A stretch of 63,756 bases of DNA, filler included, from Neolecta irregularis DAH-3 (lineage: Eukaryota), in assembly GCA_001929475.1 (NCBI GenBank). It is 7 parts of 7 records of this genome, joined end to end, with 100 filler letters (N's around TTAATTAATTAA, not from the genome) between each part and the next. Parts side by side here need not be neighbours in the genome. Positions count along the whole stretch, not along the records: positions 32,092 to 44,598 come from LXFE01003595.1; 6 more parts are not named here. The stretch is one strand, 5' to 3'. Each line of letters begins with the position of its first letter. The stretch's first letter is position 1. The position numbers and the translations under genes are program-made. The notes beneath the pieces are model-generated. The model ran no database searches, was not told the origin of the DNA, and saw only the letters and a program-made list of their open reading frames with translations. Below are positions 7,454 to 49,304 of this stretch, in pieces.

Positions 7454-8894
7454 CTAGGGAAGCAGGTAAGAAGTGATCGACACCCATGACCCACTATCAG
7501 TGAAGATTCCTTCATCAGACTCTGATGTCTTCGCATCATCATCGATGACGGATGGTTGAACGATAGTCAACAAGCTACTAACCCACGACTTCATTTCTTC
7601 AAATCGACTGTTATTCGACTTTTGAGCAGGGGTACCCATGATGCTCTCGACGAAAGTCTGGCGATATCGAGCGAGTTGTGTATCTTGATGATAGATGATG
7701 AGGTCATTGATTTCTTTCGATGGCATTATTCTTCCAACGACAGGGCTCAGGCGAGACAAAATTCTAGTTGGGATGTTGAAGGAAAAGCTCTGACAGTGAG
7801 TTATAAAAAAGGCTTACAATATACGCCATCCTTTCCTTCAACCTCATAAAAATAGGTCAGTCTGAAGACATGTTCCGTCTCCTCGTCAGATACTCCAAAT
7901 TCATCGCGGATAAATGCAGTCATATTTGACGGCATGCGTTTATATTCATCTACTTTCCAGCAGCCGATTTCTTCTGATTGTTTGAACTGAACAATCTCGA
8001 GCTTACTAAAAGTGGGATTGAGTTTCATTTTCTTATTTGAAAGTGTAATATTGAAAGAGATTCTTGTTTGAGTGCCAGCAGATATGTATGGAGCCGCATA
8101 TACAGATATATCTAATGACAATGGACATCGGGAAAGACGTTTGATGTTGTCTATGATAGTAAACGGAACATTATGACAATGTTTAAAATTTGTATGAAAC
8201 GCATAAGGCAAAAATGTTAAAGGCCAGCCAACTTTGATGTCAATGGTCTCAGATTTCCATAATAAAGGAGCAAATTCATTTAATGTAACTTCAAAGGGAG
8301 AATTAGAACCAGAAGAAGAAGGTGTGGGTCGGTAGAGCGGAAAATGAAAGTTGAGGTGTATGCGATAACTGTATGATGAGCTGAGCATAACGATTTCAGA
8401 ATATACGAGATAAGCCAGTTGGTAACGCTCGTTGATATCCTCTCCGGAAACGTGTTCCAAGAGATGTATCGCGTATCATGGAAAATGAGTTCTTTTTTGC
8501 CTACCTCAAGTTTGATTTCTACCGTCTTCTCGCCTTTAGAAAACGGTGTTCGTGATATGTCCGACAGACATGCCCCAACAAGTATCTATCTATGAGTTTA
8601 CTTGTGACCTGATAGGTATGCCTCTTCGTCATCCTCAACCCCGGACTCATCGTGAAAGTGAGCATATAAACCACCTGAAAGGCGACTGAGAACCACAGTC
8701 TCGATTGTTGTGAAACATAATTCTGCTTTCAAGATAGCAGTAGGAACACGATGGACAGGACATTGTATTGGATTTGGAACAACTTTGATATTCTCAATGA
8801 CTCGTGGGGCTTCCATCTGGGGCTGAGGTTTTGTTGGTGGTGAGTTCAATGTTACTACGCGATCGAGTGAAATTCGCTTAGAGGGAGTTTGCAC
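7454..8894 (-). CDS. Hypothetical multi-exon protein; boundaries approximate
   Basis: Three collinear minus-strand ORFs (8598-8894, 7801-8460, 7454-7759); no family recognised. Confidence 0.45.
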
Positions 8895-9076
8895 AAAACG
8901 TCATGACAACAAAAGTTACCACAATATTGTAGTTATCTACATAAGACATTATACAATCCCAATTGAGAAAGGCATGAAAAAATCATATTTCAGATAATGA
9001 GGGCGTATGGTGATCGAAATTCTATCTAGGAACCCTGAGGTGAAAATTCAGAGTTGGTAAACTTTCAAGTTCTCTT

Positions 9077-10092
9077 GGAGAGAACATTGCGGAATACTAC
9101 GAAATGAACTATTCTTCACATAATATCAATTACTCAGTTACGTTCGTATCGTGACTCGTAGACTCATCAAGTCTTTAGTGGCAGACATATATATTAATCA
9201 TGAGATGCAGTGCTTATGTATTCTATGGCTCGTCAAACTCTGTTCACATTTATGAAGTCCAAATATGTGAGGCAACCAAGAATCGGTGATCATCAAAGAG
9301 GAAGATCTTTATACCACCAGTGGCCTTTTCAAGAACAAGTAGTAATCTCTATGCGGGTGGGCGGATGATCTTTTTTGACAATTTATATAGATGCAATACA
9401 ATATTCACTAAATAACCAAAATTGCTAATATAAAATGATTTCTATCTGGTCATTTCTTTCGTTGGTGAAGAATGCTGCACAAAGTTCACGTGGAATCATC
9501 CTGATCACTCTGTCACGTGATCAGGGACAAATCTTGCGAGTGTAACTTTGAGCAAATGGCAATCAATTCACAGTTGAACAACCAACCAACACATTCAAAC
9601 AAAACAAGCACTGTCAGGATCTGAATTTAAAGACGAATCTAATGGTCTGCCAACAAATTCAATACGAGAAAGTCAAAGGGGGACCTTTGGAGAAGCATCA
9701 CATGGAGGAAACTAACTACCAAACCGCCTTACAACCTAATAGCCTGCCAGAGCATTCTCCAGGTGGATGGTTGGATCTCTTGGTGAAGGCGGGCGGCATA
9801 AAAGTCATCCGCTCACCTGCATAGAGATTACCACTTGTTCTTGAAAAGTCCACCGGTCGTATAAAGATCTTCTTCTATGATGATCACCGATTCTTGGTTG
9901 CCTCACATATTTGGACTTCAAAAATACGAACAGAGTTTGACGAGCCATAATAAGCACTGCATCCCATGATTAATATATGCGTCTGCCACTAAAGACTTTA
10001 TGAGTCTACGAGCCACGATACGAACGTAACTGAGTAATTGATATTATGTGAAGAATAGTTCATTTCGTAATATTCCGCAATGTTTTCTCTCC
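9077..10092. mobile_element. Foldback/non-autonomous element with ~295-bp inverted repeats
   Basis: About 9077-9372 is the near-identical reverse complement of about 9800-10092; spacer of about 430 bp with no convincing ORF. Confidence 0.75.
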
Positions 10093-10161
10093 CCGGCGGG
10101 CGGGTGGACTTGAAGAACCAACCCATCCATCTATAATCAAGAGATAATTTCACAGAGTTAT

Positions 10162-11998
10162 TCAGTCATGACATTCAAATGATCTCCCACTCGTTGACCC
10201 AGCCTCAACGACAATTTGTTCTCCCTTTTCATACAAGTCAAGAATCTCTTGGTAAATGTTCCATTTCACACGATCAAATCCTCGGACCCGAGCACATGTT
10301 CCTTCCAGCTGTTGAACGAAAGTCTCAAATGATTTACCATTTCCTAGAACCGCCCATGCAGCTTTATTCGCAGCACCCTGGGCACAGGCATTACCGGAAT
10401 GTGGTATAAAAACATCTCCCCCGATGACATCTGCGAACACGTCTATTATAGTAGAGTTTCGACTTCCACCACCAACAACGTAAAGACGTCGAGGTGGTTT
10501 GTTGTTGAGCAAAGGCCTAGCCCGAAGGCTGCATGACAATGCTTGACTTTCGCAGATTATTCGGGGGTCAAGTGTGTTTTCCCAATTCGTTACGACAAGG
10601 TCATTATCTCTGGTTGAAAATCGAGTTAAGCTGGACGATGTTGGTGGGATAATCTCGTCTAGCGGGTAATAGTACCCCAGTTTTTTTCGATTTTGGCCGC
10701 CGAAGGGCTCGGTTTGTATGATGTGTTCGTTGAATGTTTCCCAGGTTGGTGGTTCCAAGGTATCTCTAATTTGCTCCCGGGCAAGGCCACCATTCTTGTA
10801 ACATAGCATGGACATGTAAAGACCATTTGTCGTTGGATGTTTGAATAGGTGATACGAGGGATGAGGAATATAGCTTGGTGTTAGGAGAAGGAGGGTTGTT
10901 GATGTGCCCAGCGAAAGAACGACATCCATTGCATGTAATGGAAGAGATAAGATTGTCGAAGGGTTGTCTCCTGTGAACGAGATCACCACACAGTCTAGTC
11001 GTTAATTTGTATCCTCAATTGAATCCTGGGTACCTTTATTGAATCTAAACTTTTCTTGAAAGTACGTACTTACAGATCCGAAATTGTGATCCCCAGAAAC
11101 AACAGAGCCCAATTTTCTGTTCAGTTCCGGAGTTTTTGCGGCACTTCCAGCAGTAAGTTCCATTAGTTGTTGGCAATATTCATTCTTTTGAACATCCCAC
11201 AAATTCGCGCCACATACATCAGAAATATCCATCTCCACAATTCGACCTACGAGAACTGATGCAAGAAAGCTTGATACCAAAGATATTCGAGATGTGATTT
11301 CATATTTTTCGGGATGTTTTTTCCGAAAAGAAAGGATTTGTGGGCCTGTGAATCGCTGTTTTGTTACAAAGGAAGAAAAAGAGACCCTACATGGTGTGCT
11401 TTCGATCCGGTTATTTCGGCAAGTTGTTTTGGTCCTCCAGCAGATTCTTCAAATTCATGACATTCCACGCTAGTGGATGAGTCTTGCCAATTTGGCGACA
11501 TGGGATGAGATAGCGCCTCTGAAATTTGCTCATGCAAGGGTTTTTCAATATCGTATGATTTCAGGATCTCTTCTGCTTTTCCAGACCAGTATACAGAGCC
11601 GTGTTGCTAAGATTTCAGCCAGACGCGACTGGTTTGGGGGGAACTTGGCCAGCCCCAGAGATCCCTTTGACCAATTGGAATGGGAAATTCTCAATTTTCA
11701 TTTGGTTAAGAAGAAGATCGAGGGCCTCCACCCACATTGCAACTGGAGCAACAACCGAGGGCCCTTCTTTCAGGACTCCATTGCAAGTTCTAAAATGAGG
11801 GCATATTAAGTAAAACATTGGTACTTGTATTGCGGCAGATCTCTATCGAACAGGACAAAATATTCGCTGTGGAAGGCAAGATGTTCATCGATGGCAATCG
11901 CTTTGAGCTGGAATCGTCAATTCACTGCAAGATATTTATACTTGATATACCTGTTGAGTTGAGAGGTCAAAGCCTATGAATAAGGATTTTGACGACAT
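10162..11998 (-). CDS. XKS1: Xylulokinase (FGGY family; multi-exon)
   Basis: [17 protein letters not shown]-terminus; [36 protein letters not shown] motifs. Confidence 0.92.
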
Positions 11999-32091: not shown

Positions 32092-32277
32092 CGGCTTGAA
32101 TCCGCTTCAAAAGCTGTGACAACTGCATGTCGGGCTCTTGTTCGCCATGTACAGGAGATCATCGCTAAACGGTCCAGAACGGCTCAAGAAGACGTCAACT
32201 TCGAAGGATTAGGTTCTCATGAATTCAAGGTCAGAGAGATGGAGCAACAGGTAGAAATTTTGAAATTGGAGAACGAT
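32092..32277 (+). repeat. Second copy of the SLA2 3' coding segment
   Basis: 186 nt matching 41009-41194 with 3 substitutions; bounded by gaps on both sides. Confidence 0.9.
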
Positions 32278-32287
32278 NNNNNNNNNN

Positions 32288-35200
32288 TTACAGACAGACG
32301 TCTATTTTGCAAACTCCCATTTTCGGAGACTCTTTTCGGCTTCAAAAGTCCGTTTTTGAAAAGTCTGGTCGTCGTTGTTCCAAAAGGGTTTTTCCTTACT
32401 ACACATCCTCGCATTATACAGTTTCAAATCAATTGGACCGTCGTTTTCCGATAATGTTGGCTGGCTTTCCTCAATCATATCCCATGGTCGACAAGGCATC
32501 TCATAAATTTTTTCATTCGTTGGGTCGATTAAATAAAGACCGTCCGTATACGGATCAAAGCGACTCGAAAGCATCAGCGAACTAGACTGCGGAAACGGCA
32601 AAGAATTTTCTAAATTTTCTTTTATTTTCGATAAATGTTCGTCAGAAACATCTGTAGCCATTAGTCCAATTCTTGCTAAATTTCCGTACCATTGATACAA
32701 TGCATAACGATTTCTAAAATGAATCGGTAAAGTGCACAGTCTTCCTGGACGACAGGAATCTAGAATTGTAAGACTAATGGTAGGATTGCGAATCTGCCTT
32801 GAGCGCGGGACAAAGAATGGCAGTCCATAGATGAGCACTCATTTTTTCCAGAGGGTCTTTCTTTGCAAAGCGGAATAAATGTATGCAACGAATAAGAATC
32901 GACAACCTTGACCATAAGTATTTGATAGTCGTTCATGGTTACCTTCGAAGACAATCTTCCTCGCCAAAGGCAGAACTTTTGTCAATATCCATCTTATCGA
33001 TATCAGACGCATTATGGAGTTCCTGAAGAAATACAACGACTTTGCTAGTCGTTTCTCGCAATTTCACTAGGGTCTCCGAGGCCAATGTCGGCACTTTAAT
33101 CGTTTCATCGACAAATGAACAATTTGAAAGAAGTGATTCAATGATTAGAAAATAGGTCTTCGTGCGCTCGATCACTCCTTCTTCACAAGGTTTCGTAGAC
33201 AACATATCAAACACAAGCATCAATTGTGTCTCGATGTGACTGAACAGCTAAGCAAAGTCAATAAAATAAAAAATAACAAAGGAAATAACCATTTGTTTTG
33301 ACGAAGATGACAAATTTGAAGTCAACTCGTTTCCATGGTACTGGTGATTCATTGCCGAGATACGGAGATTCTGGATGTATGTCTCAATAACTGAAGTAAC
33401 TGTTAATTCGTCATCAATTCCAGCAAGGGAGAAAATCAGACTGATTTCGTAAGCCAAGATCGTATTTGAAATTTCGTCAGCTTCATCAAGACATTCCACT
33501 AGCTGTTGCAATGGTTGACAAGACCCATTGAGACCTCGAAGACATCGAAACAAACGCAAGAGAATCCTCTTCTCACAAGTGCTTTCATGTCGAAGAAGGA
33601 AATCCGAGAAAATTTGTTCAGTCAGTGTACAAAAAGAACGTCTCCAAAGTTCCACAAAAGTAGACGTTGGCGCAATTTCAAAGTCTCCCTGTGTTTGTGA
33701 ATTTCCGGCTTCCACGCGGATTATGTAATCCAATAATCGATACAGAGCTGTCAACGCATTATTATCAGGTTGCATGATCGCAAAACGAAATGATAAAAAA
33801 TCCTGATATTAGTCCTGTAGTGAAGCAACATACGGAAATGGTCAGCCTCGACATTGAAGGATTCTCCAAATTGAAAAGCTGCAATAAAAGAGTCGTTTTC
33901 TCTGCCTGAACAGCAAGTTGTTCGCCCTATAGAACATCAAAGCATGAAATCTCAAGAAAATACAGCATGATCAAGGACAGCGTTGATGACATTGGAGAGA
34001 GTTGTAGCTCCATGCGCCAAAAGGAAAGCTAATTGAGGTTTTAGATTTTCCGAGGATGTACCTTCAGCAAGCTGGGATGCTAGATACTCTGATACAGCGA
34101 CATCGAAAGCACATCGATTGCACTCTGCAACATGCTCGACAATATTCGAATACGTCCATGTGTGTGTGTCATCTGGTTGAAACCCGTCATTGAAAACTTC
34201 CATGATGGCGCGAAAGGCATGCGCAACAGTATTGGCGTCTGAGGGCTCCAATGCGGCCATAGCTTTCGATATATCATTGGCACGATCTTTTGTAGTCTGT
34301 AAGTCGAGTCCAATATCAGATGCCGGTGTCAAATAGACATTTAACATGGCTTCTGAGATTCGCAGATTGAGTTCATTGAGGATTTGTTGAAATGGTGGAT
34401 CTATATGAACCAAATGCTTTCCTATTTTTCTTACCGTGGCAAGCGCCCTCTTTTCAACAAGGATTTCAAATTGAATGGATTGAAGCTTAATTCAGTATTA
34501 AAAATGGAGATAGAGGCACCTTTTGTGACAGACAAACAGCAAAACACGTAGGCTTTTCAAAAAGTAGGAAGATATCGAGATATCTCTCAAGGCAGAGAAT
34601 TGACGACCTCAGACTTGATGCATGCGTACAATTTCTTAGAAAATCAACTGCAACCTGTCTATCAGCGGTCATCTCGAGATTTGCCAGTACAGTCCGTAGC
34701 GCTTGATATTCCTGAAGCGTTTGGAGCAAAAATTGAACATGATCAAACAGGATACAGGATAAATTGGAGAAGCCATTAGTTTGGATTTGGCGAATAATCC
34801 AAGCAGCAAGTGAACTCTTGAGCGACCTATTAAGCCGCCGTATTTCGTCCAAGAAACTACTCTCATACAATGAATCCATAAAGATACTGTCGGGTTCAAA
34901 GAGATATGATTTGAGATGCTCTTTAATCAGAATAAGGCCTTGATCACATAAATCCTTTGGATCGTAAAGATTCAATAACACCGAATTTCTTTGATTTCGT
35001 ATTGCATTAGGAAGTTCTCCCGCAGCGATTTCTATCAACGGAATAGAATGACGACGGCTCCGCTGTCGTTGTCAGCTCAGATGTACCAGAAAACCTACGG
35101 GTCCAGAGGATTGATGGCTTGTAATAGTTCCTTTTGCTATCAGACTCCTCATATACTTGGAATATGAAAAGATTTTCAGTCGAACGAATTCTCCGTACAT

Positions 35201-36747
35201 CAGATAAATGCTATCCGAGTTTTCAACCCGGTTCGCCGTATACTCTCCAAGGAATTTAGCTAATAGGTTGTGAACATTGAAAGTGCTCGGTTTTTCCTTC
35301 TGGAAATGGACTAGAATACTCCCCGCAAGAAATAGGCGATACCTGCCCGTCCGGAATGGTGTGATAGCCCATTGACATATATTATGAACAATCTCTTCCT
35401 CGGTACCCCCAGTTTCGAAGCATCGCATGGTAATATGAGCTATATCAAACGGTATGTTTGCTGAATCAAGAATATGCTTATAAGTCCGGCAGTAGAAAGA
35501 AAACTCACTTCAACAACCCTTATATTCGAGGCGGGGGGACTTTGCAAACGACTTGGACTTTTGATTGCAGGTGTCATTCGAACAGATGACGCAAGAGTGG
35601 GCGCTCTTTTTAAAAGTTCCTGGTTTCAGCTATTGACTTTTTGTTAATATACCTGTAAACGTTCAGTTACTAGCTGAGCACCTTCCGGGTGCATATCAGC
35701 ATCTTTGATCTGGATATCAATAATTGGTTTATGATTCCATGAACCTGCACAAGTCGAGCCTGAATGACCTCGATTAAGCGCATCGAAAGCTTCCCATGAG
35801 TGAATATATGCTTGGCGAAATATTTCACGATCAGCAAATGGTGTAAAACGAGGCCATTGTCGCTAGCTTGGAGCTGTAAGATGAGTTTCTCCAGGAATAC
35901 TTCGTGATTGATCAGGTTCTCTGAGTATAACCTGGAGGCAAACTGCAGACAATATGATAATTTCTCCTCCCATTGCCGCGTTCCTTGGGGCATATCCCGA
36001 TGTCGACGCTCTTGTTCAACAACAGTCTTAATAAATGTAGCAACATGGGATGTCCATTCTACCAGCCAAGGATGTTGACTTGAGTTTATAGACACGCTCG
36101 TAGTACCCTTCCGTTTAAGACTGCGCAATTCATTCGTTCCAATACAACGTGCAAGCCAAACAGCACGTCCAAGTGGTATGCGTTTATTTAGGCATTGTTC
36201 AAGAATTGCTATTCCTCGGATACCATGGGGACATGATCTAGATAACCTTCGCAAAGGCAAACTAGAGTTCGCAAGATCACGAAGCCATGCCTCCCGCTTT
36301 GGATCTGTCAAAGTAACTCTGGGAGGGCGCTTGAAAGTTGACTGTCCCATAATCTTCCCATTTTCGACTCTTTTGTTAAGAGCCGAAATCAGAAATGCCG
36401 AAAGAGCGGACAAAGAGTTTGGTTGTCGCAGTGAGGTTATTAGATGTGTCTGCGCCGAGCTTGTTTCCCCCTGAGTCACTCAGCGTAAGACAAGAGGTAG
36501 AATATACGAGCACAGGAGCCTTGTCAATAAAGCCATTTTTGACAATGTTGGGTGAAAGGGTGTCTTCGATCGTTATATCTTTTTTTGGAAAGAAGTCTGG
36601 ATAGCCTTGCGAGTGAACATCCCGATAATTTTTGTACATACCAATTGAAGAACAGGATGAGTATGAAGCAACAGTCATTGGCGGTTTCATATCAAATGAT
36701 TGGAACCGAGAATCTTTGGAGAACGACGATTTGTGAGAGCGATCCAT
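32288..36747 (-). CDS. SRB8: Mediator kinase-module subunit Med12/Srb8 (multi-exon; 3' end uncertain near gap)
   Basis: Med12 domain FKRPPRVTLTDPKREAWLRDLAN..PLRRLSRSCPHG..IPLGRAVWLARCIG; YPDFFP; WAITPFRTGRYR. Confidence 0.88.
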
Positions 36748-37326
36748 TAGTTGAGAAGTAGAAGTGTATATTAATCAAATCTTACCTCCGATAAGCGTTA
36801 CCTCTCCATTCTGAAGGTTATATATGAAAATATACTGTAACTCTAACTACTGCGTTAAAGCAGGATTTTATTTCACGGGATGAACACACTAGGCACTTTC
36901 GACGAGGTTCCCCTAGTGTAGAACATCAGGGATAGTAAGGCTTCCCTTCACTTGTACGTTGAAAGGAAATATAATCGGAAACATTTCCTAGTCAGTTGAA
37001 ATGGCCATAGTCAGTAGAAGAATTGAAAGGACAAAAATGGAAAGCGCAATAAGACTACGTACATCGTTCGTTAGCAATATTATGTCGTAGCATGTACTAT
37101 AGATACTTCTAAGGTCTCTTTCTCGATTTATCCAAAGAAATAAATTAATCTGGCATATGTTGGAGCTAGTACAAACCATAAAGTCCCAAGTATCACAATG
37201 GAAAGGTTAAGAAGAAAAAAGTAGAATTGTTCGTCTCGTAGAGATATGCTTCAATTTCATGATTCCAAAAAGAACCAGCGCAGGACTTCTCTTCGAGCAA
37301 TTCAGACTGTGGTATATGAAGCAGAG

Positions 37327-37368
37327 ATAGCGATTAAAATGAAAGCGATTAAAATGAAAGCGATTAAA
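37327..37368. repeat. 15-bp tandem repeat (AGCGATTAAAATGAA) x~3
   Basis: Visible in the SRB8-SLA2 divergent intergenic region. Confidence 0.8.
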
Positions 37369-37674
37369 AAGTGTTATTCAATCAAAACTTGCCATGCGAG
37401 TCTAACCCCCCATAGACCATCCCCAAGATCATGCTCAAATCTCCTTGAGATATTCCATTTAGTAACTGGACTTCAATTTTAATTCTATTTGATAACTGTC
37501 TTTTGGGTTTCAAATTATGTTCATAAACTGAGAGTTTGGCGCATGTGTTAATGTTTGACGTACGGCGTCATATTCCCAGCCAAACAAAATCAGGACGACC
37601 GCGCCACCGCTCAATTCAGAATCACAATAACCACTAGGCCTCGCAAAGCCCTTTCAGCGGAAATTTGGGTTGAA

Positions 37675-40600
37675 ATGTACGACAATATCAATCTGAACAT
37701 CTAATACAGAAGGTCTGACTACGCTGCATCTCGCAGCGCAGATTATGGGCCATCGGATTTATCGGTTAACATCAAAAAAGCAACCAGTATTGAAGAAACA
37801 GCTCCAAAACAAAAGCATGTTCGAAGCAAGATATTAAAAGTGTCCGCTATTGACGAGCAGGCTGTATTTTATACACATGGGACCACCAAACCTCGCAAGC
37901 TTTTTGGACTGGAGTAAAAGTCCAGCCTATTCTTTCCGACGAGGTTCAGATATTCAAAGCTTTAATTATGATCCATAAAGTTCTCCAAGATGGACACCCT
38001 AGTGTGCTTCAGGAGGGGCAGTCTCAGACACATTGGATTGAAACATGTGCAAGGTCAGTTTCAGGAGATGGGTATCGAGGTATTGCGGTATTGAAATTTT
38101 TGGTCTGAATCCAGGTTACGGACCTCTAATCAAATGCTACGTCAGATTCCTTTTAGGAAAACTCAATTTCCACCGCCTGCATCCAGAGTTTAATGGTAAA
38201 ACCTGTCTCACTCATACCTGACTGTCAAGGTACTTTCGAGTACGAAGAATATGTAAGCTTGAAGAATGTTAACGATCCAAACGAAGGGTATAGATCTCTG
38301 GATCAAGCCCAGACGCTCATATACAACAGATATGAGACAATTACCAATCTTATGCAGTTACAAGACCAAATCGACAGTTTTCAACGCCTCATTTTCGCGC
38401 ATTTTCGGGGTGGGTCTAATAACGAGTGTCGGATAGCAGCTTTGGTGCCTTTAGTCAAAGAAAGCTACGGGATTTATAAGTTTGCCACGAGTATGCTACG
38501 TGCAATGCACTCGGGTATCGTTGTTGTGGATGTCATCACTTACATCGACAGTTACGGAGTCTGATGAAGCCTTGGAACCTCTCAGGACAAGATATAATGC
38601 CCAACACTACCGCTTATTGAAGTTCTATTATGAGTGCTCTAACGTCCGTTACCTTACTAGTTTAATTGCTGTACCAAAACTGCCACAGGTAATTGGTTTC
38701 TTTATGTTCTGATGATGAAGGACCCTCCAGACGTTTTCGAAGATTCACCCGCTCTCCCTCGTAGACCCACCGAAAAACCTCAAACCCCTTCTCCTAAAGC
38801 CACCACGCCGGCGCAGGTGGAGCCTATCAGTGACTTCTGGAGTACAGAAAAAGCTCAAAAACAAGCTCAACAAGAATATGAAGAACAACAACGCCAGTTT
38901 CAGGCTCAGCGCGATGCAGAACTACAAAGACAGCAGATGTTGGCTCTCCAGCAGCAACGAGAGTTTGAGGACCAACAGCGACTTCAAATTGAGCAACAAA
39001 GGCTTGCTCAGGAACAGTTGATGCATGACCAACTTCAACGTCAAGCACAAGGCCGTGCTGCGGAATTGGAAAGGGAAATTCTGGCCATGAGAGGACAGTA
39101 TGAACGTGACCAATTGATGTTGGAGCAATATGATCGGGTATTCATATATAGCTGTACCATGCACTCACATAATAGAGAGTCAAAGCACTGGAAATGGAGA
39201 TGCAGCAGCTTGATAGTAGCAATCACCAGCAAAATGTCGCCAAAGACGACCTAATACAGTCACTGCAAGGTGCATGATTTACTTCGGGCATGACTGATGA
39301 TTTAGAGCAGATAAAGATGTGGAAGAACAAATATGAAGCTCTAGCAAAATTATATTCGCAGCTTCGACAAGAACATCTGGACCTTCTTGGAAAGTTCAAA
39401 CAAATGCAACTAAAGGCAGCTTCTGCTCAAGAAGCAATCGATAAGAAGGAACGTATAGAGCGAGAGATGAAAACAAAGAACCTTGAATTGGCAGACATGA
39501 TACGTGAAAGAGATCGGGCCAGGTATGAATTGGATAAAGTCAAAGATGTAAATTCTTGTCCTCGTCATCAACTGAAACATCAGAGTCAAAAAGATGAAGT
39601 CGAAAAAGTTAGAAGAGAACTTCGGTTTACTCAAGAGAAAGTCGACCAGGCAGAAAAATCTAAAACCGAATTATCGGATGTCATCTCAAGGTATAAGCAG
39701 GTGATTGATGATCTTGAAAGGCAAATACGTTCAAATAAAGACGCTCTTGAGGAATCTATCAAGGCCGTGCAGAATAAAGATCTGGAACTTGATGCTGCCC
39801 TACGAGAGAAAGAAGAAGAGCTTGAGATTTATAAGACTGGGATGGATGAATCACTCTTACAGTTAAATGAGCTGAGATTGGCATGATATGCAGTCCTTCT
39901 CGACTAACATAGCAGAATCATCAAGATACAGATAATGCAATGGACTCACAGATTGATGCTCTCCTCCTAGATCATCTTCAAAAGCTAAATGAGATCATTG
40001 GTATATATCATCCTGGGTTATACACTGATTACAGATGCTGTTCTTCGAAATGCTGTCTCGAGACTGGACAACTCCTTGTTCGAATTAGATTCACCTATGC
40101 AAGCCGGGAATCAGAATTCAACTGCCGAGTATCTCCTTTCTATGATCGAGAATGGAAGTTCGACAGCGACTGAATTCGCCACGGCATTCAATCATTTCGT
40201 TGCCGATGGACCAAACGGTGACCATTCAGCAATCATACAAACTACGAATATATTTGCAAGCGCCATAAATGATGTTCTTATCAACACGAAGGGAATTAGT
40301 CGGTTGGCCACCGATGATTCAAAGGCAGACGAAATTGTGAACACTGCTCGGCTAGCTGCGATTGCTGCTCAAGGCTTCTTCAAAAGCTTAGCATCATCTA
40401 AACTGAAGAATGTATCTGTAGACCAGAAAACTGAAATAGTAATCACGGGAAACCTCGAAGTGCAGAAAGCCTTGCAGCGGTTGTCCCAATTAACTGAATC
40501 TTATGGTTCTAAAAAAATCAACATCCGACAAACTGCGGACATTGCAGAGCTCGTTGACCAGGAACTTCGAGAAACGGCCGAAGCTATTGATCGGGCCACA

Positions 40601-41266
40601 GAAAGATTGACGGCTTTGTTGAAAGGTTCGAAAGATCCCAAAATCTCGTCCGCAGATCTCCAAGTTAATGATGCAATCTTGGAAGTTGCAATCGCTATAA
40701 CCAATGCAATCGCGCGGCTCATCAAAGCCGCCACAGAGTCTCAACAGGAAATCGTTGCTCAAGGCCGGGGAAGTAATACTAGAACTGCATTTTATAAACG
40801 AAACAATCGCTGGACCGAAGGGTTAATATCCGCTGCCAAAGCGGTGGCTATGGCCACCAATATCCTAATCGAAACTGCAGACGGAGTTATCAATGGTCGA
40901 AATAGCGTGGAACGGCTAATTGTCGCCTCGAATGAAGTAGCCGCGGCTACTGCTCAGCTTGTGGCTGCCTCCAGAGTTAAATCTTCATTTATGTCTAAGA
41001 GTCAAGAGCGGCTTGAATCCGCTTCAAAAGCTGTGACAACTGCATGTCGGGCTCTTGTTCGCCATGTACAGGAGGTCATCGCTAAACGGTCCAGAACGGC
41101 TCAAGAAGACGTCAACTTCGAAGGAATGGGTTCTCATGAATTCAAGGTCAGAGAGATGGAGCAACAGGTAGAAATTTTGAAATTGGAGAACGATTTATCA
41201 AATGCAAGGCGGGTCCTAGGTGAAATGCGGAAAGTCTCGTATTATCGGCAAGAAGATGAAGCATGA
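37675..41266 (+). CDS. SLA2: Endocytic adaptor Sla2/End4 (ANTH, coiled coil, I/LWEQ; multi-exon)
   Basis: IKKATSIEETAPKQKHVRSCILYTWDH; WKNKYEALAKLYSQLRQEH; FYKRNNRWTEGLISAAKAVA; EMEQQVEILKLE. Confidence 0.97.
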
Positions 41267-42066
41267 TAAAGTAGTTATTGTATATCGCAACGTTAGGCTA
41301 TCGCAATCAAGATTTGACCATTTGATCTTCTCTTTAGAACCTTGTGTCACCTTTCCATTGCCAGCATTCACCCCAGACAGGTTTCATCACAAGCAGAGTC
41401 GGAGTATGTTTCAGTAATTCAGCTAAAAACATTTGAAGGTCTTAGAGGATCATGCTTTATACTTACTTACTTTATACCCAGCAGCGGGTTAAACATGGCT
41501 TTTCGAAAGAATTTAGAATAGACTGTGTCTATGTTCCGGTTTTACCTTCTGACATCGTAAGTGAATATGTCGATGTATCTTACCATATGTCAGTTTTCCA
41601 CAGGCTACATTCACAAATTCAGGACGTGGACAACCCTCTATAGACAAAGCAAGCTCGCGTCTAAATTTATCATATGAAAGGTAGTTTCTCTTTTGATTGC
41701 GTTGTTGGATGATCTTTCGTAAAAAAGCAAGGAGCAGGGTTTTAAATCATGAACGACATGTCGATTTTTCCCTTCCACTGTCGTTCATCACGAACAGGAT
41801 TGGAGAGGCATGAAATAAAGTAGCGTTCTTATCAATCTTTATGTATCATCCTTTACGTTATGAGCTAACCTTATCAGGTTGTATTGACGCGGGTAAACCT
41901 ATCCTTTGTCTTAAAGGAATGAATGCATTGTCCGTTGGCGGTGAGACAGACATTCAAATCCGGAAACGTTGAACTACTTGACAATCCGGCTTCGCACATA
42001 TAAAAAACTCTTCTTCGCCTTATCGAAGAAATAGCTAAATTTCCACTATTCCTGCGACCTGCATCA

Positions 42067-43059
42067 ATGGGCGCATCTTCACGAAACTCTACTCTATTCC
42101 TTTCCCAATGTAACAAGTGGTCCGTTACAAAGTCAAAGCGTCGAGCGTCATCCCTTAGTCGGCCTGCATCCGCTCCTCCTGCTGTTGCTCTACAGTTGTT
42201 TGAATCGGAGAAAAGAGCACCTCAGAATGATTCTTCAACGCTTACCATCATCCAAGAGTTGGACGGCAAGAACCAAATACCCTTGAGCGATCTCTCAGCA
42301 GTACCCACCAATCCCCCTTCACCTTCCAATAGAGCTCTTCGAGACGTTCTTACAGCAAAGTACAGGCGTCAACATCCCGGAAATGAAGCATCTCGATCCT
42401 CATCGCCTTCACGAGCACGATCGGAATCAAGTAGGCGTAGAGGCGTTGTCAAGTTTCCTTCTCGCCCTAATAATGCATTCTTTCTCTTTCGCGCAGATAT
42501 GATTAGGAAACCCGACCTGCAAGGCTTTACCCAGAGCCAGCTGTCCGGTATACTCGCAGAGCTATGGAGTAAAGAGCGTGAAGAAGTAAAGCTACATTAT
42601 CGGAAGAAAGCTGAAATCGAAAAACAACTATATCTTCAAAAACAAAGAGAAATGAAAAATTCCGCAGCCGATAGTAATTTCGATCTGCTCGATGCCTCGC
42701 TCGCCGTCTCGTATCCGTCTCCGCCCAGTGACGATATCACTGATCTGCCCCATATTCCTTCATATACTTGGGAAAGCATATCGCCACCTGTTGCCTCATA
42801 CACCGATTTGCTCAACTCAAATTACGGGAATCTTGAATTTTCCGAGGGCCCTTGGTTTCTGAATTCCGGCGATCTGCCTTCGCCTGATAGCCAAGGTCAG
42901 GCCGACTCGCCTTTAGAAATTGGATGGTTGATGCCTGATAATTATACTCAACTACAGTATCAGTATTTGACGCAGACGCCATTGGATTTACAATTCCAGT
43001 CTAGCAATTCACCGCCGTCACTGTGGCATAATGAGAGTCCGAATACTGCCTTTGGATAA
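42067..43059 (+). CDS. HMG-box transcription factor, probable mating-type protein (Mc/MAT1-2-1-like)
   Basis: PSRPNNAFFLFRA..QSQLSGILAELWSKEREEVKLHYRKKAEIEK HMG box; acidic Pro/Ser-rich C-terminus; adjacent to SLA2. A short extra 3' exon to about 43126 is possible. Confidence 0.8.
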   Translation: MGASSRNSTLFLSQCNKWSVTKSKRRASSLSRPASAPPAVALQLFESEKRAPQNDSSTLTIIQELDGKNQIPLSDLSAVPTNPPSPSNRALRDVLTAKYRRQHPGNEASRSSSPSRARSESSRRRGVVKFPSRPNNAFFLFRADMIRKPDLQGFTQSQLSGILAELWSKEREEVKLHYRKKAEIEKQLYLQKQREMKNSAADSNFDLLDASLAVSYPSPPSDDITDLPHIPSYTWESISPPVASYTDLLNSNYGNLEFSEGPWFLNSGDLPSPDSQGQADSPLEIGWLMPDNYTQLQYQYLTQTPLDLQFQSSNSPPSLWHNESPNTAFG

Positions 43060-43532
43060 TGAAAAGCTGACCCTTAGATCCATACTTTCATGGTCATTAT
43101 GACGAAGCCAACTTCGGCAAAGTTTGAAGTAGTTGAAACATCATGTATCATGTTAGTGCTATTTGTGTTTAAGTTTGAACTGCATTTTGTATAAGCACGG
43201 CATCATTTTGTGTATCATAGGTCTTCTCTTGTCAATCAGGAGTTTCCGAGTCATTTATGGATGATTTGATAGCAGAGCACAGCAGAAAGTCTGAATTGTT
43301 CAATTTTCTAAGCAGCAAAAGGTGATCTTCAAAGAAGTTTCTCCTGCGGTCTTTGAACGTGTGACCCTGTCAAAAGCTAATCAAGCCTTCTAATTTGGGT
43401 AAAACGCGAATATTAGTGGCGGCTTACTGACGTCCAGACAATTTAGTTCTGTTTTTTCATTGTGCAAAATAACTCTCAGGGGTTAATTGTTCTTCAAGTG
43501 GCGTAGCTGCATAATGTTGACTCGGTCCCAGC

Positions 43533-43572
43533 CTTTGTTAGAAGACGCCCTTTGTTCAAAACTATAACTATA
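43533..43572 (+). promoter_or_regulatory. Two CTTTGTT (TR-box core) motifs plus TATA-like elements
   Basis: CTTTGTT at 43533-43539 and 43550-43556, followed by CTATAACTATAA, about 60-80 bp before the homeodomain ATG. Confidence 0.5.
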
Positions 43573-43612
43573 AGGGATCCGCCACGCCTTGCTCTCCAGA
43601 ACACTGCCTTCC

Positions 43613-44257
43613 ATGAACGCCGATCAGCCCATAAATCCACATCAGATTTCTGATCTATTGAATCGTAGACGTATCCTTGTCTCGATGCTTGAAAGCGTCA
43701 TTCAAATTCGTCAAGAGCTGCTGCATAAATATGAACATGCGAACATAGCCCGCTCAGCACGCATGATCATGGAGGTTGTTCGTGATATTCGAAACCTAGA
43801 ACGACAGCGGGAATTCGACAATCCAGAGGGTTGTTTGGCAGCCGGTATAAACCAAGTAGCTCGTCAGCTTGTCGATATTTGCATGACGCGGCAACGCCTT
43901 CAAGGTATCTTTGCTGCAGCGTTCTTTGTCTTACCAGTAGATAGTTCCCATCGCATCAGTCGTACTCTCACCAAAGAACTCCGGCCACGCGTTCCGGACA
44001 AATCGATAAAAAAGGCTTCTTCGTCATCTAAATATTCGGCAAATTCTACTCGCATTCTGAAGAATTGGTTTCTGCAACATGTTGAACATCCATATCCAAC
44101 TGAGAACGAGAAGTTTGAATTATGTCGACAAACAGGTCTTCGTTTGAATCAATTAAATATGTGGTTCACAAATGCACGTAGGCGTTCTCAAGGTGGTGCC
44201 AAGTTTCGTAAGGAAGTAGTGTCCGAGAAACTTCTCCCTCTCGTATCCCAAAATTAA
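43613..44257 (+). CDS. TALE/HD1 homeodomain protein, probable mating-type protein (Pi/alpha2-like)
   Basis: ILKNWFLQHVEHPYPTENEK..L...TGL..NQLNMWFTNARRR; N-terminal region looks helical; intronless. Confidence 0.85.
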   Translation: MNADQPINPHQISDLLNRRRILVSMLESVIQIRQELLHKYEHANIARSARMIMEVVRDIRNLERQREFDNPEGCLAAGINQVARQLVDICMTRQRLQGIFAAAFFVLPVDSSHRISRTLTKELRPRVPDKSIKKASSSSKYSANSTRILKNWFLQHVEHPYPTENEKFELCRQTGLRLNQLNMWFTNARRRSQGGAKFRKEVVSEKLLPLVSQN

Positions 44258-44876
44258 CAGTCTTGGAGAATTCGCGATAGAAAAAAACTCTTGTATATAT
44301 CAGGGCAGGCTAGTTTTTGTATTTGCTTTCTTTTGTAGATATTGTCAATTGTCATTGTATCATCCCTCAAATCTTCAACCTGGGTGAATTACATCAAATG
44401 GTAGTAGTATATACGTTCACTCATAAGTTCATGTCGATCATTTCCGGGATATCCACTCGAAGGTTAGCTGGCTTCGTTTACATGTGGAAATCGCACGGTA
44501 GTTCTACGCAGCATCAACAACATATCTTGATAACAAGTATTCACCGCGGAAGGCTGGAGAGAAGCGACGGCGAGTGCGGTATGCGGCGGTGTCGGATGNN
44601 NNNNNNNNNNNNNNNNNNNNNNNNNNNNNNNNNNNNNNNNNNTTAATTAATTAANNNNNNNNNNNNNNNNNNNNNNNNNNNNNNNNNNNNNNNNNNNNGG
44701 GGGGTGTCGCTTAAATGGGTGTTGAGCTTAATGCATCTTCTTTTCTTTTCTCGGATTTTCTCTAATAATTCGAGTCAGTTAGCAGGATATGATGAGTGAG
44801 CCATTCCAAGGATTCAGGGTTTTGTGGCTGGCGGAATTCAATATTGTACCCTGCGTAACGACAATCAGGTCTGCCA

Positions 44877-47800
44877 ATGACACCTTCCAAAATCAATATC
44901 GCGATCGATAGGGGTGTTTGTTCAACGTCTATTCTACTCTGAGTTCTGATATGCAAAGGGAACATTTACGGACTGTATCGGAGTCAGTCAAGGAAGAGAT
45001 GATATTGTGATCAAGCTTCTTTCAGTCAATCCAGATAACTACGATGACGCTCCGATTGAAGGCATCAGGAAAATTCTAGAAAAGCATACTGGGAAGAGGA
45101 TTGGACGAGATGAGATGATACAAAGTGAATTGATTGGTATCAGAGAGTTCTATAACCATTGCTTATATACAGAATCCATAAGAATGGGAACAACAGGTAA
45201 TCTCTTTTGAACGTCGCAATTACCCAATTATAGTGGCTACAAATGCTCTTCTTGAACGCAAAGGTGAACGTTGTGCCTTGTTTATAACAAAAGGATTCAA
45301 AGATTTATTGGCAATCGGTTTGTTATCCCAAGTCAAGATTAACTGTTCTAGGGAATCAAAGTCGACCTCGGATATTCGACCTGGCGATCCACAAACCAGA
45401 TGTCTTGTATTCACAAGTCATTGAAGTAGATGAGCGAGTTACTCTAGAGAATTATTCTGAAGATCCCAACAAGGATGAGTTGGAGATTAATAAATCAGAT
45501 CCAGCTATATTCAAGGGCATATCTGGAGAACCTATTCGAGTGCTCAAAGTTCTTGACGAAAGCGCAGTCAAATCCGACCTCAAACGGCTTTACCACGAAG
45601 GTTTTCGGAGTATCGCAGTCTGCTTGCTGCACTCTTACACATTCTCAGGTGCCATCTTTAAAATTTTCTTTCATCTTAACATCTTCAGATCACGAGGATA
45701 AAATTAGAAAGTTGGCTGAAGAAATCGGTTATCGTCACATCTCTCTATCATCAAAACTTATGCCGATGATCAAGATTGTTCCTCGAGGAACTTCCTCAAC
45801 GGCTGATTCATACCTTAGCCCAGTCGTCCGTCAGGTATGACATGATGGTTCGAGTGGTGATAAATCAGTATCTCAGTGGCTTTTCGAATGGTTTCAGAGG
45901 GCGTCTTGGAGGAGAAGCTGCCCGTGAACACAACGGTCCTCGCTGTGAGTTTATGCAAAGTGACGGTGGTCTCGTCGACATCGAACGCTTCTCGGGATTA
46001 AAAGCAATTCTCAGTGGGCCAGCTGGCGGTGTCGTTGGTTACGCTCGAACATCGTATGACGCAGATACTAAAGTACCAGTCATTGGATTTGACATGGGTG
46101 AATTATCTTATTGCGTAATTCTTACTTCGAGGCGGAACGAGCACAGACGTATCACGATATGCCGGCTCTCTCGAACATGTCTTTGAGACTACCACAGCTG
46201 GAGTTACGATTCAAAGTCCTCAACTCGACATCAACACTGTATGGATTTTGAGTAAACGACTTCTGATCAATCTTTAGGTGGCAGCTGGCGGTGGCAGCTT
46301 ACTGCACTGGATGAATGGCCTATTTGTCGTCGGACCCGACAGTGCTGGGGCGCATCCAGGACCAGCATGTTATCGAAAAGGCGGCCAGTTGACAGTAACA
46401 GACGCAAACCTTTTCCTTGGCCGTTTAGTCCCTGAATTCTTTCCCAAGATTTTTGGTCCGAAAGAAAACGAGCCTTTAGATCTCGAGGCCCCAAAGAAGC
46501 TGTTGCAGGAAATGTGCGACTTGATCAATCAAGAACTTGGAGATAACAAGTTGACTCTTGACGAAACGGCTTATGGATTCATTAAAGTTGCGAACGAAGC
46601 CATGGCACGACCTATCCGGGCTTTGACTGAGGCAAAAGGCTATGATGTCTCGAAGCATCGTCTTGCTACTTTTGGTGGAGCAGGCGGACAGGTATTGGTC
46701 TTGGCTGAAAGGTATGACTAACTCTCTAGCACGCATGTGCGATTGCTCAGTCTCTCGGGATTAGTCAGATTTTAGTACATCGATATTCATCTGTCCTGTC
46801 GGCTTATGGAATGGCTCTCGCCGATGTCGTTCATGAGATCCAAGAGCCATGCGCTGAAACATGGGACAAAAATTCCAAAGAATCTTGGATTACAAGGATG
46901 GAGGAACTCAAAAAGAAGACTACTGAAAACCTTCGCGATCAAGGATTTTCAGAAAACCAAATCAAACATGAACTTTATCTCAATATGCGGTATCAGGGAA
47001 CTGATACGTCTCTCATGATTGTTAAGCCTGAAGGCGGATGGTCGTTTGGTGAAGCGTTCGTAGAGCAACATGAAGAAGAATTTGGATTCACACTGCACCG
47101 TAACATTATTATCGATGATATTCGTGTTCGAGGGATTGGAATGGCTGCCCGCATCACTGAAGAATCCATCGACAAGCAATTGAAAAGAAACACTTTTGTA
47201 AATGTGGATTCAGCTAAGGCGCACACTGTATCAAAGGTCTATTTTGAAGGAGGTCGATTAGACACACCAGTATATGAATTAGAAGCATTATCTACAAGAG
47301 ATGAGGTCGCTGGCCCTGCACTCATCATCGACGATAACTTGACAATAATTATCACTCCGAATGCTAACGCTCGCATTCTTGATACCCATGTTATCATAAA
47401 CCTGGGAAAAGACGAAACAGCACCAATCTCCAAATCAAAGTTGGCAAACACTCAGTTAGATCCTGTTATGTTGAGTATATTTTCTCACCGTTTCATGTCG
47501 ATTGCAGAACAAATGGGGCGAACTCTACAGAAGACTTCTATCAGCACCAATATCAAGGAAAGATTGGACTACTCATGTGCTTTATTTGATTCAAACGGGG
47601 GTCTTGTTGCAAATGCGCCTCATCTTCCTGTACATCTTGGTTCGATGAGTACATGTATCGTCCGACAATCAGAAATTTGGAAGGGAAAGCTTAGTCCCGG
47701 TGACGTTCTTGTTACAAATCACCCAGATTCTGGAGGAACGCATTTGCCTGATATCACTGTCATTACTCCTGCTTTCAGCGGCAACGAGATAATCTTTTAC

Positions 47801-49304
47801 GTTGCTAGTCGAGCACATCATGCCGACATTGGAGTAAAGTATCTTCACAACTTTTGGCTGATCGTAAGGGTATTCTCCCTGGTTCGATGCCTCCAACTTC
47901 TAAAGAACTCTTTGAGGAAGGTGCCGCAATATATAGCTCGAAACTTGTGAAAAAAGGAAAGTTTGACGAGGAGGGAGTGACCAATCTTTTATTGCATGAG
48001 CCTTCAAAATTACCTGGTTGCAGTGGAACGAGGTGTCTTCGAGATAATATTAGCGATCTAAAAGCTCAAGTGTCAGCAAATAAGAGGGGTATCGATTTAA
48101 TCAAAGTATTAGTCGAGGATTATGGCGAGGATGTTGTGCAGGTATCGGATCCTTTTTGTGAGTGCTCAATACCAAGTTTTACATGCGCTCGATTCAGAAG
48201 AATGCTGAGAATGCAGTGCGAAATTTGTTGAAAGATGTCTCAATGCGGTTCAAAGGAGAGAATCTTAGGGCCACAGATTATATGGATGACGGAACTCCCA
48301 TTTCTCTCAATATCACTATCAATGGTGACATGGGGGAAGCTGTTTTCGATTTTGAAGGGACAGGTCCAGAGGTCTATGGCAGGTTCTGTGATTCAACTTC
48401 ATTTAATATGTCCAGGGAACACGAATGCTCCAGAAGCAATCACATATTCCGCAATTATTTATTGCCTTCGCTCGTTGATTTCCGATGACATTCCCCTTAA
48501 CCAGGGATGTCTGTTACCGATACGTGTCTGCATCCCAAAATATTCGTTGCTGTCGCCTTCTTCCGGTGCTGCTGTTGTAGGAGGGAATGTTCTTACAAGT
48601 CAACGGGTGACTGATGTCATTCTCAAAGCCTTTCGTGCATGTGCGGCGAGTCAAGGCGATTGCAATAATCTCACGTTTGGGACCGACTACTTTGGATACT
48701 ACGAGACTATTGCTGGCGGTGCTGGTGCTGGACCAAGTTGGGATGGGCAGAACGGTGTTCATACACATATGGTACATTCTATACAACCTAATCTGATCGT
48801 GATTTAGACAAACACCCGAATCACTGATCCTGAAATCCTCGAACGACGGTATCCAGTTATTCTTCATCAGTTTGCTTTTCGGGAAGGTTCTGGCGGAATT
48901 GGTCAACATCGTGGAGGCAATGGACTTATTCGCGAGATTGAATTTCGTATACCATGCCAAGTATCTATTCTTTCAGAACGTCGAGTACATCGTCCGTATG
49001 GAATGAATGGAGGAGGAGATGGCCAGTGTGGATTAAATCTTTGGGTCCGAAAAGGGAGTGACAGTAAATATAAAATCGTCAATCTTGGCGGGAAGAACAC
49101 GGCCAGAATGACGCATGGCGAGAGAATCATAGTTTGCACTCCAGGTATTTTTCAGTTCCTACCATAGTACCTAATCTCATAGGTGCTGGCGCATGGGGGT
49201 TTTCGTCGACTACATCACAGAAAGAGAAGCAAAAAGACCATACATATGCGTGGTTGGGCAAAGGAAGCGCAATCTCGTATCAGTCTGCTCAAGAGTCTGC
49301 ATGA
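44877..49304 (+). CDS. OXP1: 5-oxoprolinase (ATP-hydrolysing; multi-exon)
   Basis: [68 protein letters not shown]. Confidence 0.96.

Follow-up and report, generated by a model that had tools for sequence, protein, structure and literature searches.

A probable two-allele mating-type locus adjoining SLA2, with HMG-box and TALE homeodomain genes, in Neolecta irregularis

We analysed a 63,756-nucleotide (nt) stretch of DNA (the window) from Neolecta irregularis DAH-3, an early ascomycete with fruit bodies (GenBank assembly GCA_001929475.1), in which the gene SLA2 is followed by two genes, one for an HMG-box protein and one for a TALE homeodomain protein. The segment at 41248-44521, which holds these two genes, is probably one of the two idiomorphs at the N. 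irregularis mating-type (MAT) locus, a two-allele locus adjacent to SLA2 with expressed HMG and TALE genes. A MAT idiomorph is by far the best explanation of the segment, and we hold this with considerable confidence because a site 3′ of SLA2, two unrelated alleles in a ratio of about 1:1, regulators of MAT classes and expression coincide there.

Two unrelated sequences at the 3′ end of SLA2

The genes lie on a 12,507-nt scaffold (LXFE01003595.1; window positions 32092-44598, the contig ending at 44598), which carries from left to right Med12/SRB8 (minus strand), SLA2 (plus strand), the HMG-box open reading frame (ORF) and the TALE homeodomain ORF. SLA2 (37675-41266, plus strand) contains many short introns, and its start at 37675 is our reading of the sequence. 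Its ORF pieces matched the Pfam domains ANTH (37860-38069, 1.2e-17; 38232-38510, 7.1e-16) and I/LWEQ (40037-41263, 8.6e-60). The SLA2 stop codon occupies 41264-41266, and the HMG and homeodomain genes come next on the same strand. The placement of SLA2 directly before two co-oriented transcription-factor genes, given in a preliminary description of this DNA, was thus confirmed by the Pfam matches, the stop codon and the positions of the ORFs.

Contigs from two public runs, X1 (Logan contigs) and X2, were placed on 40700-44598. The assembly probably derives from X1, which is hence not independent of it; X2 comes from the same study under another organism label, and its kind is only guessed to be DNA. 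In X1, a single left-flank contig covers SLA2 to 41211 at a depth of 423.6, and two further contigs that share their start (41182) and end (44562) form a clean two-path bubble of about equal depth. One arm, 3381 nt long and at depth 196.9, runs colinear with the window. The second arm, of 2068 nt and depth 177.9, can be aligned only at 41182-41247, with 3 differences, and at 44522-44562, with 2; in between, 1961 unrelated letters replace the 3274 of the window. The summed depth of the two arms is 374.8, compared with 423.6 for the left flank. The paths diverge at 41212, where the G/T difference leaves the SLA2 codon synonymous, and remain alignable through a left border zone (41212-41247); similarity between the haplotypes stops at 41247, six codons before the SLA2 stop, so that the final six SLA2 codons fall within the haplotype-specific zone. 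Behind the idiomorph-specific segment (41248-44521) the paths rejoin in a right common flank (44522-44598). The published scaffold stops 77 nt past the rejoining point, as would be expected of an assembler faced with such a bubble.

When the site was checked for features of a MAT locus, unrelated sequences between shared flanks were present, as were HMG and homeodomain regulators. Because the second, unrelated 1961-nt sequence occupies this site about as often as the first, we interpret the locus as a two-allele MAT locus of the heterothallic type. The anatomy of an idiomorph pair in X1, together with the adjacency of SLA2, supports the earlier suggestion of a MAT locus that keeps its SLA2 linkage. 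On the other hand, the proposal that it is a fused M+P, self-fertile locus is not supported, as X1 has two alternative sequences, about equally deep, within one pair of flanks.

A 1254-nt contig of X2 spans the right flank (44509-44598) with one inserted base behind 44521, and its 255 letters before 44509 match nothing on 40700-44598; it is probably a transcript running into the other idiomorph. When the alternative idiomorph was sought in the window by BLAST with both flanks and the loose-end consensus, the only match was a second copy, 186 nt long, of the SLA2 3′ end. This copy of 41009-41194 stands at the scaffold start (32092-32277) and has 3 differences, which change V to I at 41075 and M to L through 41126 and 41128; a 10-N gap and the 3′ end of Med12 follow. 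The variant at 41075 is also the one seen in X2. The copy looks like a mis-scaffolded second SLA2 allele, and it may alternatively have arisen by tandem duplication.

The HMG-box and TALE homeodomain genes

The HMG-box gene is covered by an intron-less X2 contig at 41520-43283 (plus strand), in which 41520-43036 is joined to 43078-43283. Its coding sequence (CDS; 42067-43036 plus 43078-43127) is interrupted by a 41-nt GT..AG intron (43037-43077) and encodes 339 amino acids, with the box at about 42457-42651. The preliminary description had drawn the gene as a single ORF at 42067-43059. The product of that ORF, P0001, matched Pfam HMG_box (2.5e-9, 37.9 bits, residues 131-195), which upholds the locus; its end had to be moved, as the spliced CDS reaches 43127. 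The corrected model is based on the X2 contig and on P0004, a relative of P0001 from a JGI source with 83% identity over 180 residues and the same spliced C-terminus. P0004 keeps 52 of the 53 covered HMG-box residues (145-197), compared with 83% identity overall, which argues for selection on the DNA-binding domain. The contig begins 547 nt before the ATG, and its leader (41520-42066) contains short ATG-started ORFs, for example at 41567-41677, 41709-41813 and 41841-41972, through which translational control of the HMG gene would be possible.

The TALE homeodomain gene, 486 nt away on the same DNA molecule, is likewise covered by an intron-less X2 contig (43418-44455, plus strand), which joins 43418-43902 to 43939-44455 with a 36-nt GT..AG intron removed. 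Its CDS (43613-43904 plus 43941-44257; intron 43905-43940) encodes 202 amino acids, with the homeodomain at about 44033-44185. The unspliced ORF (43613-44257, P0002) matched Pfam Homeobox_KN (1.6e-18, positions 1-40 of 40) and Homeodomain (1.8e-6), the latter with 51 residues on 48 profile positions, which corresponds to the three-residue TALE extension; both HVEHPYPTE and MWFTNARRR were found in it. The TALE class and the HPYP and WFTNARRR motifs named in the preliminary description therefore stand, and the uninterrupted ORF gives way to a gene with one intron. Since transcript assemblies give intron-less contigs of this kind, both genes are read as spliced and expressed; no RNA runs covering the stretch are listed.

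The spliced homeodomain protein is identical to P0003, the NCBI record 'Homeobox protein knotted-1-like 7 [Neolecta irregularis DAH-3]', so the gene is so far not annotated as a mating-type gene. A word-indexed homologue search with this protein returned only its own record (1 of 168 candidates). In a PDB search it matched TALE proteins, namely PKNOX1 (4.2e-14), MEIS (about 1e-12), PBX (about 1e-9) and TGIF, and also yeast MAT alpha2 (2.7e-5); the alignment to PKNOX1 and MEIS is gap-free across the HPYP loop. A helical region lies in its N-terminal part. The residue after WF is Thr, where Ile is typical of TALE homeodomains (PMC3360767). In the ESM Atlas the neighbours of the two proteins were TALE and HMG clusters of a generic kind; clusters of basidiomycete HD1 proteins appeared only at 0.81-0.85, which we treat as a lead only. 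The five intergenic ORFs of the segment gave no Pfam match better than E=0.068, and a tblastn search of the 63.7-kb window (E<=0.1) revealed no further HMG or homeodomain gene.

Two CCTTTGTT words, 17 bp apart, are located at 43532-43556 (plus strand), 57-81 nt before the homeodomain ATG. We take CCTTTGTT to be the core of Ste11/Mc-type HMG-box binding sites. It occurs 5 times in the window against 2.55 expected, so that there is no overall enrichment and the pairing alone is notable, having been spotted post hoc; CTTTGTT words are not enriched in the window either (14 against 12.5 expected). The pair hints that an HMG factor might control the homeodomain gene.

If the functions known from the fission-yeast, Protomyces and budding-yeast systems can be carried over, the HMG protein would activate the programme specific to its mating type, with its pheromone and receptor genes, in nuclei of that type. 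The TALE protein would be inactive until, within one cytoplasm, it met a partner encoded by the other idiomorph; the two together would then license karyogamy, meiosis and ascus formation.

Class of the HMG box

A search with the P0001 box against 1.84 billion representatives gave 84 matches (E<=1e-3), 30 of which were looked up, and 20 of these carry an organism name. The named matches come from Kickxellomycotina, Glomeromycota, Mucoromycota, a chytrid, two agarics, one leotiomycete and one fish, and they include SexM of Mucor irregularis and Blakeslea trispora and a chytrid 'mating type protein MAT-2'; no named ascomycete MAT protein was among the 30. A word-indexed homologue search with the HMG protein returned only itself and P0004 (2 of 2687 candidates). 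In a tree of 141 HMG domains, from which P0004, the duplicates P0088-P0091 and domains below 12 bits or 55 residues had been left out, P0001 fell inside a 78-row clade (SH-aLRT 97) that contains no HMGB-type matches. Judged by these comparisons, the P0001 box is of the sequence-specific fungal, broadly MATA_HMG-like type, a type that does not allow assignment to Mc or Pc. S. pombe Pc itself falls within MATA_HMG and its class is called uncertain (PMC2999568), so the MATA-likeness of P0001 cannot separate Mc from Pc.

Two structural features set P0001 apart from canonical MATA_HMG proteins. The C-terminal extension of helix 3, H..YPxYxY(xP), is absent, whereas its H and last Y are kept in at least 90% of 15 canonical sequences; and the span from helix 1 to the conserved Trp (R-to-W) is 24 residues, versus 26 in canonical boxes. 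In the 78-row clade, with 9 rows lacking the anchor set aside, the combination of no tail and a 24-residue span was found in 12 of 12 anchored rows of a class of HMG proteins from metagenomes (the environmental class) and in 2 of 56 other rows. P0001 thus resembles the environmental class in two structural features, which is no more than suggestive. In addition, the HMG_box score of P0001 is below those of all 10 control HMG proteins (44.5-112.5 bits).

Of the environmental class, 23 metagenome loci were examined. In one of them (L010, from an uncultured soil fungus), three mating-type-like regulator genes follow one another on a single strand: first a canonical MATA_HMG gene (5165 to about 6330), whose exon 2 matched HMG_box at 6.6e-12, then a non-TALE homeodomain gene (8547-9284; Homeodomain 1.1e-10) in which an intron splits helix 3, and last the environmental-class HMG gene (about 9973-11440), with a REV3-like ORF downstream. 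A non-TALE homeodomain gene likewise stands upstream in L001, L002 and L012. Going by this gene content, there appears to exist a MAT-linked HMG class distinct from canonical MATA_HMG, and loci of the L010 type may represent the MAT locus, fused or multi-gene, of a lineage that has yet to be sequenced. Neither the Neolecta homeodomain protein nor SLA2 had a tblastn match in the 23 loci (E<=1e-3), and a TALE gene, sought there by motif, was not found. Against the alpha-box profile (PF04769, cut-off 28.1 bits), all 6 members of the class matched weakly (best 24.1 bits), as did all 4 of another set (13.7-25.8 bits); these matches carry little weight because 5 of the 10 control HMG proteins also give them (8.6-19.1 bits). 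A profile search with the environmental class returned 47 matches, all environmental and none from a named genome, and for this reason we do not label the class alpha1, HMGX or Pc.

The balance of these comparisons tips slightly towards the segment being a P/alpha-type idiomorph, the counterpart of P in fission yeast and Protomyces (Pc and Pi) and of MATalpha in budding yeasts (alpha1 and alpha2). This assignment is made because the TALE gene pairs with Pc or alpha1 elsewhere and because P0001 is a non-canonical HMG protein: Pi, the homeodomain gene of fission yeast and Protomyces, is found alongside Pc (PMC7980564; 10.1101/594028), and alpha2 lies with alpha1 beside SLA2 in budding yeasts (PMC6692504; PMC4238957). 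A canonical Mc-like gene would then be expected in the 1961-nt allele. Several results pull away from the P/alpha assignment. P0001 had no match to Pfam MATalpha_HMGbox (PF04769) even at E<=10, and its place inside the MATA-like clade is not settled by the 141-domain tree. Furthermore, hhalign scored P0001 higher against canonical MATA_HMG (108.4, E 1.8e-15, probability 98.5) than against the environmental class (74.6, E 2.8e-10), a comparison that is not decisive since the profiles differ in depth (Neff 3.1 for the canonical and 1.4 for the environmental profile).

Related systems, rival explanations and significance

The locus shares features with several known systems. Like MAT1-1/MAT1-2 of Pezizomycotina (SLA2-APN2), it is flanked by SLA2, has two dissimilar idiomorphs and carries a master regulator of the HMG superfamily. 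We know of no homeodomain gene in Pezizomycotina MAT loci, whereas Neolecta keeps one. The basidiomycete HD1/HD2 system has in common with it a TALE (HD1-class) protein with an N-terminal helical region, to which the Atlas lead to HD1 clusters also points; Neolecta differs in having no adjacent divergent HD2, in the HMG partner of its TALE gene and in an SLA2-flanked locus of ascomycete kind. Fission-yeast mat1-P (Pc and Pi) and Protomyces matP belong to the same subphylum, Taphrinomycotina, combine a divergent HMG-related gene and a TALE gene in one idiomorph (PMC7980564; 10.1101/594028; PMC2999568) and have the opposite type at the same site in other nuclei (PMC7980564; 10.1101/594028). P0001 is at most a putative orthologue of Pc. 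In contrast to these loci, the two Neolecta genes are co-oriented; unlike mat1-P, the 12.5-kb contig contains neither silent cassettes nor switching repeats. The neighbours named for MAT in Protomyces, Taphrina and S. pombe are sui1, rga7 and cox10 (10.1101/594028), versus SLA2 in Neolecta.

In budding-yeast MATalpha (for example at the ancestral site in Lipomyces and Yarrowia), SLA2 adjoins MAT with the border at the SLA2 3′ end, and a TALE-type homeodomain gene accompanies an HMG-superfamily gene (PMC6692504; PMC4238957); the PDB match of the Neolecta homeodomain to alpha2 is a further likeness. It differs in that P0001 has no alpha-box by Pfam and that the Neolecta homeodomain is nearer to the MEIS/PKNOX type (51-56 bits) than to alpha2 (27 bits). 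Lipomyces MAT loci contain an additional HMG gene, HMGX, whose role is unknown (PMC6692504). Finally, the matMc-matMi-matPi loci of Pneumocystis and Taphrina deformans, also Taphrinomycotina, have closely linked HMG and TALE genes (PMC4313921); Neolecta is set apart from them by its unrelated second allele, by the lack of a Mi candidate and by other neighbours. SLA2 is not mentioned anywhere in PMC4313921.

Several points weigh against a two-allele MAT locus at this site. The bubble rests on contigs of one run, X1, probably the assembly's own, and the X1 material may be a pool of individuals and not one heterokaryon. The 80-nt right-flank contig has a depth of 258.2 and not of about 375-420, Logan contig depths being coarse. 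The alternative arm is known by its length, depth and flanks, and it is only presumed to carry complementary MAT genes. SLA2 provides the MAT flank on one side, and the side of APN2 or a similar gene is off the contig, which ends 77 nt past the segment. Another MAT-like locus may occur elsewhere in the genome, and ascomycetes have TALE genes outside MAT, such as PAH5 and PAH6 of Podospora (PMC3360767).

The last of these points leads to the possibility that the two genes are non-mating regulators, a Ste11/Rox1-like HMG protein and a Cup9/Tos8/PAH5-like TALE protein, in a presence/absence variant beside SLA2, with MAT elsewhere. Non-MAT TALE genes do exist in ascomycetes (PMC3360767), neither protein is tied to a named MAT orthologue, and the Atlas neighbours are generic clusters. 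We nevertheless regard this as very improbable, since a position 3′ of SLA2, unrelated alternatives at about 1:1 and two DNA-binding regulators of MAT classes coincide, and since the variant border lies inside the SLA2 3′ end, as at yeast MAT (Wickerhamomyces, PMC6692504). Even less credit is due to a fused M+P locus of a primary homothallic species, as in Pneumocystis and T. deformans, although the HMG and TALE genes stand 486 nt apart on one molecule and the linked matMc/matMi/matPi loci of Pneumocystis have been so interpreted (PMC4313921). This reading fails because a second allele exists: about half of the X1 molecules have an unrelated sequence at the site, and two MAT versions on separate molecules are the criterion of heterothallism of Almeida et al. 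(PMC4313921). Moreover, the segment yielded neither a Mi-like nor any other additional gene, and the HMG gene is placed as MATA-like and not specifically as Mc.

A more serious rival keeps the two-allele MAT idiomorph and takes the HMG gene as the counterpart of Mc/a2, that is, of canonical MATA_HMG, so that an M/a-type HMG gene would be combined with a P/alpha-type TALE gene in a partition unlike that described in other ascomycetes. It draws on an HMG_box score of 37.9-40.2 bits with no alpha-box signal, on canonical MATA_HMG as the top profile match of P0001 and on SexM and MAT-2 type proteins as its top named matches. P0001, however, lacks the near-invariant H..YPxYxY tail, has a short loop and scores below all 10 controls. 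S. pombe Pc is also placed among MATA_HMG, so that MATA-likeness is no evidence for Mc (PMC2999568), and an extra re-assortment event relative to fission and budding yeasts would be required. We therefore consider the Mc/a2 identity unlikely. A wider alternative, still doubtful and yet deserving some weight, is that the HMG gene is not Pc/alpha1 at all, being either of the Mc/a2 type or of a third, HMGX-like class, with a novel gene partition and a heterokaryotic fruit body. Such an HMGX-like class would be common to Neolecta and a widespread uncultured soil lineage, where it stands beside canonical MATA_HMG and non-TALE homeodomain genes.

Beyond the two-allele MAT locus that we favour, the scaffold carries on the left of SLA2 a minus-strand Med12/SRB8 gene (Pfam Med12, 1e-24), and in the Med12-SLA2 intergenic region a 15-nt unit (GCGATTAAAATGAAA) is repeated three times in tandem (37331-37378). 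The window consists of contigs chained through linkers of N runs around TTAATTAATTAA, of which 6 were observed against 0.01 expected. One of them (44599-44698, no strand) follows the locus; it joins concatenated contigs and does not represent a sequencing gap within a chromosome. The preliminary description had therefore placed the HMG and TALE genes correctly and misread this linker as a gap, and genes after 44599 are unlinked to the two genes. The next contig appears, from translated ORFs only, to encode a hydantoinase/5-oxoprolinase-type enzyme with many short introns (44699-49200).

SLA2-MAT linkage is known from Saccharomycotina and Pezizomycotina. The main text of the Neolecta genome paper does not contain the words 'mating', 'homeodomain', 'HMG', 'homothall' or 'heterothall' (its supplements may hold a mention). 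As far as the publications found could be seen, none describes a Neolecta MAT locus or pairs Neolecta with an idiomorph, and no paper on an SLA2-linked MAT locus in Taphrinomycotina was found, judged by titles and the beginnings of abstracts. A MAT locus directly 3′ of SLA2 in Neolecta would extend the linkage to a third ascomycete subphylum, and the linkage would therefore date to the ascomycete ancestor. An idiomorph with both a homeodomain and an HMG gene would also fit an ancestral ascomycete MAT having both classes, the homeodomain genes having been lost later in Pezizomycotina.

Neolecta is, to our knowledge, the sole member of Taphrinomycotina that builds complex fruit bodies, and it is unculturable. 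If the HMG gene were not Pc/alpha1, the Neolecta partition of mating-type genes between idiomorphs would be unlike that of any described ascomycete. Idiomorphs at about 1:1 would then mean a fruit body that is heterokaryotic throughout, like a basidiomycete dikaryon governed by its homeodomain pair; the ascomata of Pezizomycotina, in contrast, are largely uniparental. From its two-allele structure the locus is predicted to be heterothallic, and the idiomorph pair would provide PCR markers for typing the spores, hyphae and fruit-body tissues of this unculturable fungus, so that its life cycle, whether homokaryotic, heterokaryotic or diploid, becomes testable.

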